Source: Candidatus Woesearchaeota archaeon
Lineage (GTDB): Archaea; Nanobdellota; Nanobdellia; SCGC-AAA011-G17; PNOQ01
DNA length: 64,000 nt
Assembly: GCA_043812195.1 (NCBI GenBank)
Contig: JBDRML010000016.1
Span: 75,780-139,779, forward strand
Direction: 5' to 3'
Position numbers and translations under genes: made by a program. Positions 10,377 through 15,160 of the stretch are shown piece after piece (the stretch's first letter is position 1; each line of letters opens with the position of its first letter). Under the pieces are notes generated by a model. That model saw only the letters and a list, made by a program, of their open reading frames with translations, was not told the origin of the DNA and ran no database searches.

Positions 10377-12764
10377 TTACTTCCATGATATTTTCAACTT
10401 ATTCCCAAACGTTATTTGCTTTGCCCTACAAACAAATTTCAAATCTTCCAAGAAATCATTTATCTCTTTCTCATGTTTTTTATCTAAAACTAAAACAACT
10501 TCCTCTTTCAAAGATTTTTTATGTTTAGTCTTAAACTTTCTCACTTCAGATATAACTCCAACGCAATAATCTCCAACTTCTTCTAATTTATCATCAACTT
10601 TAATCTCTTCAGGCCACTCACTTAAATGAATACTTTTTAATTTCTCTTTCTTAACAAAATAATCTTGATAAATTTCCTCAGTTATATGTGGAACAATAGG
10701 CGCCATCATTTTCAAAATACTCAATAAAGAATTATACAATGTATACTGTCCAGATAATTTAGCATCTTCTCCTCTTTTATCAGGATTATACATTCTATCT
10801 TTAACTATTTCCAAATAATTATCACAAAAATCTTCCCAAAAAAACATCTCAACATGTTTCATAGCATTACTAGTATCATATTTATCAAAAGATTCAGTAG
10901 CTTTCTTAATCACTTTATTTAACTTTAATAATAACCAATTATCAAAAGCCTCTAACTTAATTTTCTTAGTCTGATAATCTTCTAATATATCAATACTAAA
11001 TTTAGATGCATTCCATAATTTAGTCAAAAATCGATTACCTGCAATTAAATCATTTTCCTGATAAGATAAATCCTCTCCAACTTTAGCACCACCAACCCAA
11101 TATCTAACTACATCAACACAATATTTCTCTAACAATTCATGACTCCACACAGCATTGCCTTTACTTTTATGCATACCTTTTCCTTCAGGATCTAACACAA
11201 AAGTTCCAATCATAACGTCTTTCCATGGAATACTCTTAAAATGTAAAAATGATTTCAAAATAGTATAAAATGCCCATGTTCTAATAATATCATGAGACTG
11301 AGGTCTTAAACTCATTGGAAAATTCTTTTTATAAAATGCCTTATTACCTAACCATTTCATAGCAACTTGAGGAGACATACTAGAAGTCATCCATGTATCC
11401 AATACATCACTATCAGCAACATAATTAATAGACCCACATTTACATTTCTTCTTAGGTTTAATCATTGTAGGATCAACAGGTAATTCTTTTTTATCAGCAA
11501 CTAAAGATTTTCCACAATCTACACAATACCAAACAGGAATAGGAACTCCATAAAATCTTTGTCTAGAAATACACCAATCCCATGCTAAATTCTTAGTCCA
11601 ATCATCATATCTAATCTTATAAAACCCAGGATACCAATTAATTTTTTCACCTTGCTTTAATAATTGATCTTTATACTTCAAAGTTTTAATAAACCATTGC
11701 TTTGAAACCAAATACTCAACAGGAGTTTCACATCTCCAGCAACAATTAACACTTTGAACAACCTTTTCTTGCTTAACCAACTTACCTTCTTTATTAAGTT
11801 TATTAATAATCTGTTCTCTTGCTCTTTGAAAAGTCAAACCCTCATACTCTCCAGCATTTTCATTCAATAAACCTTCTTCAGTAATAATAGATCTTAAAGG
11901 TAATTTATGTTCTTTCCACCATAAAATATCAGTCGTATCTCCAAATGTACAAACCATAACAATTCCAGAGCCAAATTTCATATCCACTTTAGAATCTTTC
12001 ATAATAGAAACTTTATGTCCATAAATAGGAACAATAGCATTTTTACCAATTAATTCTTTATACCTTTTATCATCAGGATGAACAAATATTCCAACACAAG
12101 CTGCAAAAAACTCTGGCCTTGTAGTTGCGATCTCTATTTTATTTCCATCCTCTAAATCAAAAGTAACATAATTTAATTTAGTTTCTCTCTCTTTACTTTC
12201 CAATTCAGCCTGTGCTAAAGAAGTCTGATGATAAGGACACCATAAACTAGGTTCTTTATTTCTATATAAATCTCCTTTTTCAAATAATTCAACAAAAGAT
12301 GTTTGTGCAACTTTCTGAGCATCTTCTCCAATTGTAGTATATAATAAATCCCAATCATAACTATGACCCATTTTCTTAAAAAATCTCTCAGCATATTCTT
12401 CCTCTACTTTCTTAGATTCTTCTAAACATAATTTTCTGAATTCAGCTCTTGATGTATCTCCCTTAGAAACTTTAAATTTCTCTTCAACATATTTTTCAGT
12501 TGGTAAACCATTATCATCAAATCCAGGAGCAAAATAAACATTAAAACCTTTCATTCTTTTGTACCTAGCAATAAGCTCAAATTGAGTATAATGTAAAGTA
12601 TGTCCAATATGTAAATGCCCGGATGAAGCATATGGCGGCGGAACATCTATAGAATAAACAGGTTTCTTACTCTTAAAATCAAATTTGAAGATTTTACTCT
12701 TCTCCCAAAACTCCTGCCATTTATTTTCAACAGATTTAGCATCATATATTTTGGATAGACTCAT
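10377..12764 (-). CDS. valS: Valine--tRNA ligase
   Basis: PPPYASSGHLHIGH, ATTRPE, WDWCISRQR, DVLDTW and GMHKSKGN motifs. Confidence 0.96.
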   Translation of the reverse strand: MSLSKIYDAKSVENKWQEFWEKSKIFKFDFKSKKPVYSIDVPPPYASSGHLHIGHTLHYTQFELIARYKRMKGFNVYFAPGFDDNGLPTEKYVEEKFKVSKGDTSRAEFRKLCLEESKKVEEEYAERFFKKMGHSYDWDLLYTTIGEDAQKVAQTSFVELFEKGDLYRNKEPSLWCPYHQTSLAQAELESKERETKLNYVTFDLEDGNKIEIATTRPEFFAACVGIFVHPDDKRYKELIGKNAIVPIYGHKVSIMKDSKVDMKFGSGIVMVCTFGDTTDILWWKEHKLPLRSIITEEGLLNENAGEYEGLTFQRAREQIINKLNKEGKLVKQEKVVQSVNCCWRCETPVEYLVSKQWFIKTLKYKDQLLKQGEKINWYPGFYKIRYDDWTKNLAWDWCISRQRFYGVPIPVWYCVDCGKSLVADKKELPVDPTMIKPKKKCKCGSINYVADSDVLDTWMTSSMSPQVAMKWLGNKAFYKKNFPMSLRPQSHDIIRTWAFYTILKSFLHFKSIPWKDVMIGTFVLDPEGKGMHKSKGNAVWSHELLEKYCVDVVRYWVGGAKVGEDLSYQENDLIAGNRFLTKLWNASKFSIDILEDYQTKKIKLEAFDNWLLLKLNKVIKKATESFDKYDTSNAMKHVEMFFWEDFCDNYLEIVKDRMYNPDKRGEDAKLSGQYTLYNSLLSILKMMAPIVPHITEEIYQDYFVKKEKLKSIHLSEWPEEIKVDDKLEEVGDYCVGVISEVRKFKTKHKKSLKEEVVLVLDKKHEKEINDFLEDLKFVCRAKQITFGNKLKISWK

Positions 12765-13115: not shown

Positions 13116-13269
13116 AATCCACTCCTTAACAGATAAATTAAATACAAAACTAATAAAACAACCAGAATCCAAAATAAAAAATTTAGTTGACCTTTTTTTA
13201 ACATTATTAATAAAATTAGTTATCTTAACCTATTTAATCCTTTCGCCAAAAACCACATCAAAGAAAACA

Positions 13270-13277
13270 TTTAAAAA
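13270..13277 (+). promoter_or_regulatory. TATA box of tRNA-Phe
   Basis: TTTAAAAA preceded by a purine-rich BRE-like stretch, about 26-33 nt upstream of tRNA position 1. Confidence 0.55.
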
Positions 13278-13302
13278 GGAATTACACGCTAGCCAATTTA
13301 AT

Positions 13303-13433
13303 GGGCCCATAGCTCAACCTGAAAAGACATAGTTAAGTCTAATCTTTGGTTAAGGAGAGCACCAGATTTTCAGGTGAAACTGAAGTCCCAGGTCAGATAT
13401 CTGGCCATCCGGGTTCAAATCCCGGTGGGCCCA
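13303..13433 (+). tRNA. tRNA-Phe(GAA) with three introns (13322-13353, 13366-13378, 13386-13398)
   Basis: Acceptor GGGCCCA/TGGGCCC-A; T arm CCGGG-TTCAAAT-CCCGG. Removing three BHB introns gives D arm GCTC-AACCTGGGA-GAGC and anticodon arm CCAGA-CTGAAGA-TCTGG. A T-run follows. Confidence 0.92.
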
Positions 13434-13490
13434 CTTTTTTAAAACTTTCCAAAATATTTATAAACAACTAAAAACAAAATTAAGATATAA

Positions 13491-14039
13491 ATGAAAAACA
13501 AAAGTGGTGCAATTGAACTTTCTGTAACAACAATTATAGTTGTAGTAATTGGAATCACATTATTAACTTTAGGTTTAGTATGGGTTCAAAATATATTCAA
13601 AGACTTAGGAGAAGTTAGTGATAATAGCTTTGCAAGAGCAAAGCAATTAATTGAAGGGATAGAAAAAATAGACAAACCATTATCAATAATCCCAAGTCCA
13701 ATAGAAGTAGAACAAAATGGTGAAGAAGTAGCAATAGTAGTAATAGCTAATTTTGAACAAGAAACAAAAGTAGTAACTGTCGGCATGGTACAACCAGAAA
13801 ATGATGTTCTTTGTGGGTTCTTTGATGTTCTAAGTTCAAATAGAAAATTAAAAGCAGAAGCACCAAATAATCCTTATACTTTAGGTTCAGGAGAAAGAGT
13901 AGAAATAGCAATTGCAGTCAAAGGCAATGATGCTGATTTAGGACTAACAGGCTGTAATGTTCAATTAGTTGGAGACATACAACAAACTAAAACTTTAAAC
14001 GTAAGAGTAACACCAAAATCAAGTGGAATTTTCGGTTAA
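13491..14039 (+). CDS. Class III signal peptide (pilin-like) protein
   Basis: MKNKSG|AIELSVTTIIVVVIGITLL N-terminus followed by a beta-rich domain. Confidence 0.7.
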   Translation: MKNKSGAIELSVTTIIVVVIGITLLTLGLVWVQNIFKDLGEVSDNSFARAKQLIEGIEKIDKPLSIIPSPIEVEQNGEEVAIVVIANFEQETKVVTVGMVQPENDVLCGFFDVLSSNRKLKAEAPNNPYTLGSGERVEIAIAVKGNDADLGLTGCNVQLVGDIQQTKTLNVRVTPKSSGIFG

Positions 14040-14077: not shown

Positions 14078-15160
14078 TTATTTTGCTTTTTTAATTATCT
14101 TTTCTAATTCTACAATAAAATCTTCAGTATCAACAAAATAGTTAGGATATGCTTTTTCCAAATCTTTAGGAGTGTCTGTACCTACACGAACAACATCATA
14201 ATCATTTCTCCCTTTATGTCTTTTTTCTAATTCAGAATAATCTTTAATAGCTTGTTCTTCTTGTTTTTGAAGATATGTTTTAATACTTAATTTTCCCCCC
14301 AAAATATCTAATTCTAATAAAAAAAACTTTGCTTTTCCTTTCATCTTCTTTCTTACTTCTTCATTAAAAAATTTCATTGCATGTGCCCATCCTTCCATAC
14401 GATGAATAACTTCCAATTCTTTTGCCTTTTGTTTAATTTGAGAATACAATTTTTCTTTATTAATAGGGGTGTTATCCACAATTGGATAATTTTCCTTTAT
14501 AGCAAAAGCTGAACTTACTAATTTAAAGAAATCCGCCCAATCTGAAATTCCCTCATTAAACTTAATCGCTTGTCTTGTAAAAAAATCCACAGTTTCAACA
14601 GCAGTAGCCCAAAGATGTTGTAGTTTTGATCTTATCTGAACTTCAACACGTAACCCATTATAATCCGTCTTTCTCTTATCACTTTTATATTCATATATAA
14701 CATGAAAACTCCTATATCCATCTTTCTTAGGAGAATCAACATAATTTTTTTTCCCAACTCTTCTATGTTTTAAATTTCCTTTTAGATAATAATTGTTGTA
14801 AATTTTTTTAGCAATTTCTACATTTTTAACAATAGCCCTACATCCTGCAATATCTTGCATCTGCGATAATTGCATAGTTGGATTGCGCCCTTCATACTTT
14901 CTATTTAATTTATTAACAATTGATGTAGCTCTTTTAAGTCGTTGAGCAACCAAAGCATCCTTGTCACATTTTTTAGAAACATTTTTTAAAGTCATCTGAA
15001 AGATATGTAAAGGGTAACTATGTATGGCCCTCCAACTATTCAAAATTTCAGTAGCTTTAACCATATCTTCCTCCAAACTATTAGCATCTTTTAATATTCT
15101 TCCTGCTTTATTCAATTCATTTTTGTCATATCTTGGTTTTTTCCATGCCATACACATCAT
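14078..15160 (-). CDS. RelA/SpoT nucleotidyltransferase-domain protein (small alarmone synthetase-like)
   Basis: AQRLKRATSIVNKL, MQDIAGCR, GYRSFH and EVQIRSKLQHLWA synthetase motifs. Confidence 0.88.
   Translation of the reverse strand: MMCMAWKKPRYDKNELNKAGRILKDANSLEEDMVKATEILNSWRAIHSYPLHIFQMTLKNVSKKCDKDALVAQRLKRATSIVNKLNRKYEGRNPTMQLSQMQDIAGCRAIVKNVEIAKKIYNNYYLKGNLKHRRVGKKNYVDSPKKDGYRSFHVIYEYKSDKRKTDYNGLRVEVQIRSKLQHLWATAVETVDFFTRQAIKFNEGISDWADFFKLVSSAFAIKENYPIVDNTPINKEKLYSQIKQKAKELEVIHRMEGWAHAMKFFNEEVRKKMKGKAKFFLLELDILGGKLSIKTYLQKQEEQAIKDYSELEKRHKGRNDYDVVRVGTDTPKDLEKAYPNYFVDTEDFIVELEKIIKKAK

Follow-up and report, generated by a model that had tools for sequence, protein, structure and literature searches.

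The locus described here raises the question of whether the introns of a tRNA gene that is interrupted three times within 131 nucleotides (nt) can be removed in any order, or whether their arrangement dictates the order. The locus lies at positions 13303-13433 of a 64,000-nt stretch of DNA (the window, whose numbering is used throughout unless a contig is named) from a Woesearchaeota-type DPANN archaeon of groundwater. Introns of 32, 13 and 13 nt interrupt a tRNA-Phe gene at 18/19, 30/31 and 37/38, respectively, dividing it into four exons. Taken jointly, the observations are best explained if this is a functional tRNA-Phe(GAA) gene with three bulge-helix-bulge (BHB) introns of which intron 3 comes out last, a reading that we consider very probable. 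Tandemly interrupted tRNA genes of this kind are already known from other archaea, and ordered or nested splicing is already in print (Soma 2014, PMC3978253), so neither is a new inference. What the gene offers is a correction to annotation, a clean and internally calibrated example of what folding models predict to be a structure-enforced splicing order, and a lineage in which an apparently alpha-type EndA faces relaxed, non-canonical substrates.

Anatomy of the gene and of its spliced product

Scripted removal of the three introns (Table 1) leaves 73 nt in which all stems are paired, and ARAGORN calls this product tRNA-Phe(gaa) over its full length. The first 7 nt of the gene pair perfectly with the 7 nt preceding its last base to form the acceptor stem, the CCA is not encoded at the 3' end, and the spliced product has 61.6% G+C versus 29.5% for the genome. 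The features of a tRNA-Phe are all present, namely the anticodon GAA, A73, G20 and a body like that of orthologous tRNA-Phe genes. We take the anticodon, A73 and G20 to be the identity elements recognized by PheRS.

All three introns share an in-register central helix of 4 bp, two opposite bulges of 3 nt and splice sites placed two bases 3' of the helix strands. Intron 1 has the central helix AACC/GGTT, the bulges TG^A and AA^G (the caret marks the splice site), an inner helix AAAGA/TCTTT of 5 bp and an outer helix CTC/GAG of 3 bp; the outer GAG is G20-A21-G22 of the tRNA, so that the register of the motif is two bases off that of the mature D stem. Intron 2 has the central helix CACC/GGTG and the bulges AG^A and AA^A, with an outer helix of 2 bp and an inner helix of 1 bp, and its 5' part can base-pair with the anticodon loop. 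The same spliced product would be obtained if intron 2 were shifted one base to the right, although by eye a BHB exists only in the 30/31 register; introns 1 and 3 leave no such choice of junction. Intron 3 has the central helix CTGA/TCAG, the bulges AG^T and AT^A and an inner helix of 1 bp, and the 5-bp anticodon stem serves as its outer helix, a stem that stays discontinuous for as long as intron 2 is present. When at least 2 bp are required on both flanks (the strict hBHBh' form), intron 1 fits, and the inner helices of introns 2 and 3 each provide 1 bp.

An earlier reading of this DNA from its letters (the original prediction) had placed these three introns, with their helices and bulges, in a gene with the anticodon GAA, and several independent results bear it out. 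Besides the scripted splicing, we carried out an exhaustive search anchored on a T arm with a closing acceptor stem, in which up to three introns were removed in any order and the candidates were re-evaluated after each removal; it demanded a 4-bp central helix, both splice sites two bases 3' of its strands, at least three flanking pairs and a cloverleaf product. The search returned one solution at the locus, the same as the three-intron reading. As a control for chance, the letters of each intron were shuffled 20000 times, and an in-register 4-bp central helix arose in 59/20000 trials for intron 1, 28/20000 for intron 2 and 299/20000 for intron 3, with the helix of intron 1 plus its observed flanks reached in 0/20000. 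Thus, a BHB motif in register is rare by chance for each insert. Colinear genes supply a further line of evidence. The genome (938 kb in 45 contigs, 90% complete) is the sole member of its genus among the genomes compared, and the family comparison comprised 24 other genomes, of which 21 have a colinear tRNA-Phe(GAA) gene. Because these genes, most of them intronless, are colinear with the spliced product, all three pairs of junctions are fixed.

Table 1. Coordinates of the tRNA-Phe(GAA) gene, its parts and its flanking signals in the window.
Feature	Positions	Strand	Description
TATA-like box TTTAAAAA	13270-13277	+	26-33 nt upstream of tRNA position 1; read from the sequence; putative archaeal promoter, from the usual archaeal TATA spacing
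tRNA-Phe(GAA) gene with three introns	13303-13433	+	from the sequence and scripted splicing
Exon 1	13303-13321	+	tRNA positions 1-18: acceptor 5' strand, U8, A9, D-stem 5' strand, D-loop to G18
Intron 1, 32 nt	13322-13353	+	between G18 and G19 (18/19); strict BHB
Exon 2	13354-13365	+	positions 19-30: remaining D-loop, D-stem 3' strand, position 26, anticodon-stem 27-30
Intron 2, 13 nt	13366-13378	+	30/31; minimal, relaxed BHB
Exon 3, 7-nt micro-exon	13379-13385	+	positions 31-37; anticodon GAA at 13382-13384
Intron 3, 13 nt	13386-13398	+	canonical 37/38; BHB relaxed on the inner side
Exon 4	13399-13433	+	positions 38-73: anticodon-stem 3' strand, 4-nt variable loop, T arm, acceptor 3' strand, discriminator A73
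Run of six T	13435-13440	+	two bases past the discriminator; probable transcription terminator

Standard gene finders miss this gene. Without introns, ARAGORN finds no tRNA across the whole window, nor does Rfam give any match in the window at its gathering threshold; genome-wide, the Rfam tRNA model has 26 tRNA matches, and the tRNA-Phe locus is not among them. In its intron mode, ARAGORN does report the locus, but wrongly, as a tRNA-Thr(ggt) that has a single intron of 36 nt. One could take this call at face value and propose that the locus is a tRNA with other junctions or another identity, such as a single-intron tRNA-Thr(GGU), and could add that an identical acceptor stem is found in this genome's tRNA-Lys(CTT) and in a tRNA-Ile-like gene from a related genome (G045). 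We find this barely credible, since the ARAGORN call leaves a 95-nt body in which two inserts are ignored, the three-intron solution is unique in the exhaustive search, and its product is colinear arm by arm with the 21 family tRNA-Phe(GAA) genes, in all of which the anticodon loop is identical to that of this gene. Under the tRNA-Phe reading, the sole tRNA-Phe gene that we found in the genome escapes both ARAGORN and the Rfam tRNA model, and automated annotation would report an essential tRNA as missing. The same false gap probably arises in other DPANN genomes; incomplete tRNA sets in such genomes are described as pointing to undetected disrupted genes (Kaneta 2018, PMC5829648).

The tRNA-Lys(CTT) gene mentioned above (G000:C1:13680-13754, + strand) has its first 14 bases in common with the tRNA-Phe gene, as well as 23/24 of its last bases, which cover the T arm and the acceptor 3' strand. 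A search for islands of high G+C as a guide to hidden RNA genes was abandoned, because the 459 islands were too noisy.

Folding costs and the order of splicing

The layout of the introns bears directly on the question of order. As the original prediction had noted, the outer helix of intron 3 abuts its central helix only when intron 2 is absent. It had further pointed to TTCAG within intron 2 as able to sequester CTGAA, and this hairpin is present in the minimum-free-energy fold of the full precursor. We put a price on each motif by calculating the ensemble free energy required to force its BHB (central helix and unpaired bulges, with or without the flanks) in every splicing state. The costs quoted here refer to the central plus outer helix at 37 C and are nearest-neighbour energies for naked RNA at equilibrium. 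By the same measure, the motifs of the ten tRNAs with a single intron in this genome come to 0.2-6.5 kcal/mol, which gives the scale an internal calibration.

On this scale the motif of intron 1 costs 4.3 kcal/mol in every state. That of intron 2 costs 7.5 kcal/mol in the full precursor and 4.4 kcal/mol when intron 1 is already out, and rises to 18.0 kcal/mol if intron 3 is removed first. The motif of intron 3 costs 16.3-16.6 kcal/mol as long as intron 2 is still in (16.3 in the full precursor) and 3.0-5.0 kcal/mol once intron 2 is out; the ranking of the costs is unchanged at 15 C. The high cost of intron 2 after an early loss of intron 3 arises because positions 27-30 and the first eight bases of intron 2 then pair with positions 32-43 in a 12-bp hairpin. 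The motif of intron 3 is complete only after intron 2 has been excised and the exons joined, and for this reason intron 3 would come out last. The calibrated costs support an order in which intron 2 is predicted to leave before intron 3, intron 3 last and intron 1 at any time, in agreement with the sequential processing that had been proposed. In silico, the precursor behaves as a hierarchical pre-tRNA, in which one BHB is predicted to form only after the removal of another.

The mechanism that we propose is as follows. A precursor of about 131 nt would be transcribed with three protein-spliced BHB introns, a single alpha-type EndA would make its cuts two bases 3' of both strands in every 4-bp central helix, and the exons would be joined by RtcB. 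Intron 1, a self-contained strict BHB in the D-loop, could leave at any time, and its removal would help that of intron 2, whose BHB would require the precursor to fold otherwise than as a cloverleaf, with positions 25-28 paired to the 3' end of the intron. Excision of intron 2 and joining of the exons would then bring the anticodon stem against the central helix of intron 3, which would be the last to be removed. Were intron 3 to leave first, intron 2 would be trapped through the 12-bp hairpin that it forms with the anticodon loop and stem, and splicing could go no further.

It is also conceivable, if unlikely in our judgement, that the introns are real and spliced but follow no obligatory order, the endonuclease cutting each independently or variably by way of co-transcriptional folding, chaperones or induced fit. 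The folding costs are, after all, equilibrium values for naked RNA, and during transcription the central helix of intron 2 can form before the competing strand of the anticodon loop exists. Moreover, in the red alga Cyanidioschyzon merolae the order of removal is described as tracking motif stability even where the motifs fold independently (Soma 2014, PMC3978253), which indicates that order can have a kinetic and not a structural basis. What such a scheme does not accommodate is that intron 3 has no contiguous outer helix while intron 2 is present, a matter of topology and not of energy alone; that the 13 kcal/mol gap between the two states of intron 3 (16.3 versus 3.0) lies far outside the 0.2-6.5 range of the genome's own motifs; and that removal of intron 3 first buries intron 2 in the 12-bp hairpin. 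For these reasons we favour the ordered reading, with intron 3 last.

Relatives and metagenome loci

Among the 21 family tRNA-Phe genes, 18 are intronless, two (in G020 and G003) have an 18/19 intron and one (in G014) is interrupted by an intron of 30 nt at a different D-arm site; none of the 21 is interrupted at 30/31 or 37/38. The 18/19 introns, of 31 nt in G020 and 29 nt in G003, are homologous to intron 1 and can be aligned with it. Across the three aligned introns the BHB is paired in 36/36 cells, with three compensatory pairs; G020 contributes one, in the central helix, and G003 two, in the inner helix. When the partners are slid by 1-3 columns as a control, pairing drops to 28-56%. Intron 1 is therefore kept with compensatory changes in two other genera. 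The exons covary as well. The tertiary pair 15:48, A:T in this gene, links exon 1 with exon 4; across 33 rows, which include duplicates and this gene three times, it is G:C in 25 and A:T in 8, without a mismatch.

In two genomes of the family, G012 (L036) and G023 (L037), the exons of the tRNA-Phe genes are the same as those of G020 (L035) except for one D-loop base, and only G020 has the 18/19 intron; gain or loss of this intron must therefore have been recent. The version of the D-loop base found in G020 completes the central helix of its 18/19 BHB.

The stretch occurs in groundwater metagenomes. A contig from a groundwater metagenome run (X1) is identical over 13256-13650, and the run may be the source sample. 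To look beyond the family genomes, we scanned metagenomes with the exon pattern of the anticodon arm, allowing free gaps at 30/31 and 37/38, and obtained 18 loci. Two contigs (L130, L131) carry a 131-nt gene identical to this one. Ten of the 18 loci have no insert at 30/31 or 37/38; one of these, L128, is a tRNA-Phe in which the anticodon arm is continuous and the T arm is interrupted by about 40 nt. Two other tRNA-Phe loci do have inserts in the anticodon arm, L140 with 18 nt at 30/31 and 12 nt at 37/38 and no D-loop intron, and L143 with 14 nt at 30/31 plus a D-loop insert. Four matches (L134, L136, L137, L138) were set aside as chance matches in non-tRNA DNA. The three 30/31 inserts of tRNA-Phe genes, that is, those of this gene, L140 and L143, share the 3' end GGTGAA, which provides the pairing partner of positions 25-28. 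Such a patchy distribution of tRNA-Phe introns among relatives (none, 18/19, another D-arm site, 30/31, 37/38 or T arm) shows rapid gain and loss.

These comparisons also bear on whether the gene is a working one. It could be argued that it is decaying or non-functional, that the inserts are not removed and that the working tRNA-Phe gene lies on unassembled DNA; the assembly is 90% complete in 45 contigs, and the prevalence of intronless genes (18/21) among the relatives would fit. We regard this as very improbable. The exon stems pair perfectly and the conserved tertiary positions, covarying 15:48 included, are preserved; each insert contains an in-register BHB of a kind rare by chance, and two other genera have kept intron 1 with compensatory changes; two further metagenome contigs carry exactly this gene; and the TATA-like box and the T run are in place. 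The original prediction had also proposed a check that the genome contains no other tRNA-Phe. In the 938-kb, 90%-complete assembly we detected no second tRNA-Phe body; here short-word BLAST with the spliced product gave only T-arm matches to other tRNAs, and a scan of the assembly for GAA anticodon arms returned 44 hairpins, all in low-G+C, non-tRNA contexts. We thus retain the reading of the locus as a functional tRNA-Phe gene.

The pair of sites at 30/31 and 37/38 is also occupied in the tRNA-Phe of L140, in three tRNA-Lys(CTT) genes and in the tRNA-Ile-like gene of G045. The three tRNA-Lys(CTT) genes, in G003 (L007), G019 (L014) and G009 (L028), have introns of 21-23 nt at 30/31 and of 14-20 nt at 37/38, and tRNA-Lys(CTT) is intronless in the other family members. 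The locus of G045, a genome of the same order and another family (L015:1458-1562, + strand), matches the 3' part of the query and was considered as a tRNA-Phe; this was rejected, as by eye it is tRNA-Ile(GAU)-like, with the same acceptor stem as this tRNA-Phe. Its inserts are 17 nt at 30/31, ending in GGTGAA, and 13 nt at 37/38, where by eye the central helix has one mismatch, and the strict BHB solver finds no solution for it.

We also considered whether an antisense copy of the anticodon loop, as seen in intron 2, is a general trait of 30/31 introns, and rejected the idea, as 10/12 such introns are ordinary in this respect. Among the 12, intron 2 of this gene (198/5000 shuffles as good) and the intron of tRNA-Ser(GGA) (392/5000) both stand out weakly.

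Splicing enzymes, comparable systems and genomic context

The genome has one EndA gene (G000:C3; L001:1474-2019, - strand), which encodes 181 aa with both Pfam EndA domains, and an RtcB ligase gene at G000:C8:182-1417 (E 1e-144). The closest solved relatives of EndA are the N. equitans alpha subunit (E 3e-34) and the enzymes of M. kandleri and M. jannaschii; its homologues, of 171-236 aa, are named in their sources as tRNA-intron lyase of Woesearchaeota, Nanoarchaeota or Nanoarchaeia. The catalytic residues Tyr115, His125 and Lys156 are invariant in 25/25 aligned homologues, as is Lys120 in the loop between the Tyr and the His, and Lys42 in the N-domain is nearly invariant. Against the M. jannaschii alpha subunit, 172 residues align to 171 with no extra residues and with the same loop length, and at the Lys-bearing insert the protein has 6 residues fewer than N. 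equitans alpha and 5 fewer than the ARMAN-2 enzyme. A Lys/Arg-rich patch (PKRKK) in the N-domain was considered as a substitute for the crenarchaeal loop and rejected, as the 25 aligned sequences conserve just one Lys. When the genome was searched with Pfam, a single EndA locus exceeded the cut-off, and phmmer and jackhmmer searches of 4349 six-frame open reading frames gave no second EndA (beta) below E = 1; nor did the 90%-complete assembly reveal a three-unit protomer (about 390 aa) besides the one 181-aa gene. By its architecture, this EndA therefore looks to be of the alpha4 type without a length insertion, presumably a homotetramer. The original prediction had held that such a gene needs a broad-specificity endonuclease; the endonuclease has been identified, but it does not match a known broad-specificity architecture, being a single alpha-type gene of 181 aa. 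Alpha4-type EndAs in DPANN lineages are described as going together with more tRNA gene disruption (Kaneta 2018, PMC5829648).

Several points weigh against the reading that we favour. The BHB of intron 2 in the full precursor costs slightly more than the calibrated maximum (7.5 versus 6.5 kcal/mol), and its flanking helices, just 2 bp and 1 bp, make it a relaxed substrate. Alpha-type EndA is described as narrow, with just (alpha-beta)2 and epsilon2 forms cutting relaxed motifs efficiently (Hirata 2019, PMC6379350). Co-transcriptional folding, modification, chaperones and enzyme-induced fit could change the order expected from equilibrium energies. Among the 24 family genomes there is no homologue of introns 2 and 3, which leaves covariation as evidence for intron 1 only, and a second tRNA-Phe gene or a beta subunit may lie on unassembled DNA, the genome being 90% complete. 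Finally, the stretch was found in no RNA run, and two metatranscriptome runs of the same study as the best DNA match gave 0 contigs, a result that carries no information on expression.

We speculate that an alpha4-type EndA of a single kind of subunit, without the length insertions that mark every known broad-specificity enzyme, processes all the non-canonical and relaxed introns of this genome, including intron 2, and that the antisense match of intron 2 is a selected device that blocks the canonical motif from forming prematurely and turns splicing in the wrong order into a dead end. This combined proposal is doubtful, and we put it forward only tentatively. If it were true, the antisense match of intron 2 would be a built-in check of order or quality on an essential tRNA. 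This EndA, of the supposedly narrow alpha type, is a good candidate for testing what sets substrate range.

The multiple-intron, hierarchically spliced tRNA genes of the Thermoproteales are reportedly the subject of work by Sugahara in 2007 and 2008 and by Tocchini-Valentini in 2009. Genes with two and three introns, among them nested introns that are spliced hierarchically, are described for this group in reviews of tRNA splicing (Soma 2014, PMC3978253; Yoshihisa 2014, PMC4090602). As in the Thermoproteales, the system described here has up to three short BHB introns per gene at canonical and non-canonical sites, including minimal introns of 12-16 nt, a last intron whose BHB is predicted to form only after another's removal, and introns that come and go between close relatives. 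It differs from those Crenarchaeota in its host, a DPANN archaeon of mesophilic groundwater with a 29% G+C genome, in its apparently single alpha-type subunit as against an (alpha-beta)2 heterotetramer with a Crenarchaea-specific loop, and in that the interrupting intron splits the canonical motif's outer helix, the anticodon stem, and is not nested in another intron.

Non-canonical and multiple introns are also reported from ARMAN and other DPANN archaea (Fujishima 2011, PMC3239211; Kaneta 2018, PMC5829648), and the latter survey is described as covering one Woesearchaeota genome (Kaneta 2018, PMC5829648). For Woesearchaeota or DPANN archaea with BHB or non-canonical tRNA introns, our literature search returned essentially only that survey, plus an unrelated paper on a group I intron. 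With ARMAN-2 (Ca. Micrarchaeum) and other DPANN archaea, the present genome shares a DPANN host, non-canonical and multiple introns and a tRNA set left incomplete by standard finders; unlike ARMAN-2, which has a three-unit epsilon2 enzyme, only a 181-aa alpha subunit is found here. In some Asgard genomes more than 90% of tRNA genes are reported to have introns, often non-canonical, and more than half to have several (Valentin-Alvarado 2024, PMC11291895). These belong to a different superphylum, and the intron load is lower here, where about 12 of the roughly 25 resolved tRNA genes carry introns. In the multi-intron and permuted pre-tRNAs of C. merolae, sequential removal is reported to have been demonstrated experimentally, with the 37/38 motif always last (Soma 2013 via Soma 2014, PMC3978253). 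The 37/38 intron is thus last in both cases, shown there and predicted here; unlike our archaeon, however, C. merolae is a eukaryote with a heteromeric endonuclease and motifs able to fold independently, whereas the 37/38 motif here is incomplete until intron 2 is gone.

The other tRNAs of the genome fit the claim that it is intron-rich and that its tRNAs are under-annotated. The set of tRNAs recovered lacks those for Met, Ile, Asp and Pro. At least 10 further tRNAs have a single intron, which in 6 lies at a non-canonical site; tRNA-Trp(CCA) (G000:C29:99457-99580, + strand, 124 nt) has at least two, one of 21 nt at 30/31 and another of about 30 nt between the anticodon and T arms; the strict solver needs three. 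The tRNA-Ser(TGA) (G000:C16:62538-62652, - strand) and tRNA-Ser(GGA) (C29:76165-76282, + strand) genes each have a 31-35-nt intron at 30/31, with bulges AG^A and AA^G that are reported as the same as those of tRNA-Phe intron 2; they have no in-register outer helix, which makes the motif relaxed. Near the rRNA operon lies a 159-nt tRNA-like gene (G000:C45:66627-66785, - strand) with a closing acceptor stem and a T arm, for which competing three-intron solutions give TAT or CTT anticodons, no single one being convincing.

Two neighbours of the tRNA-Phe gene in the window deserve mention. Beside it, at 10377-12764 (- strand), is a gene for a class I aminoacyl-tRNA synthetase of 795 aa with the Pfam domains tRNA-synt_1 and Anticodon_1. 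Its best relatives are in Woesearchaeota genomes (47-49% identity), followed by many Clostridia (41-48%) and one member of the Methanosarcinales (41%), and to judge from these similarities it looks like a bacterial-type enzyme acquired by transfer. On the other side, at 14078-15160 (- strand), a 360-aa protein contains an alarmone synthetase (RelA/SpoT) domain (E 7e-18), an uncommon feature for an archaeon.

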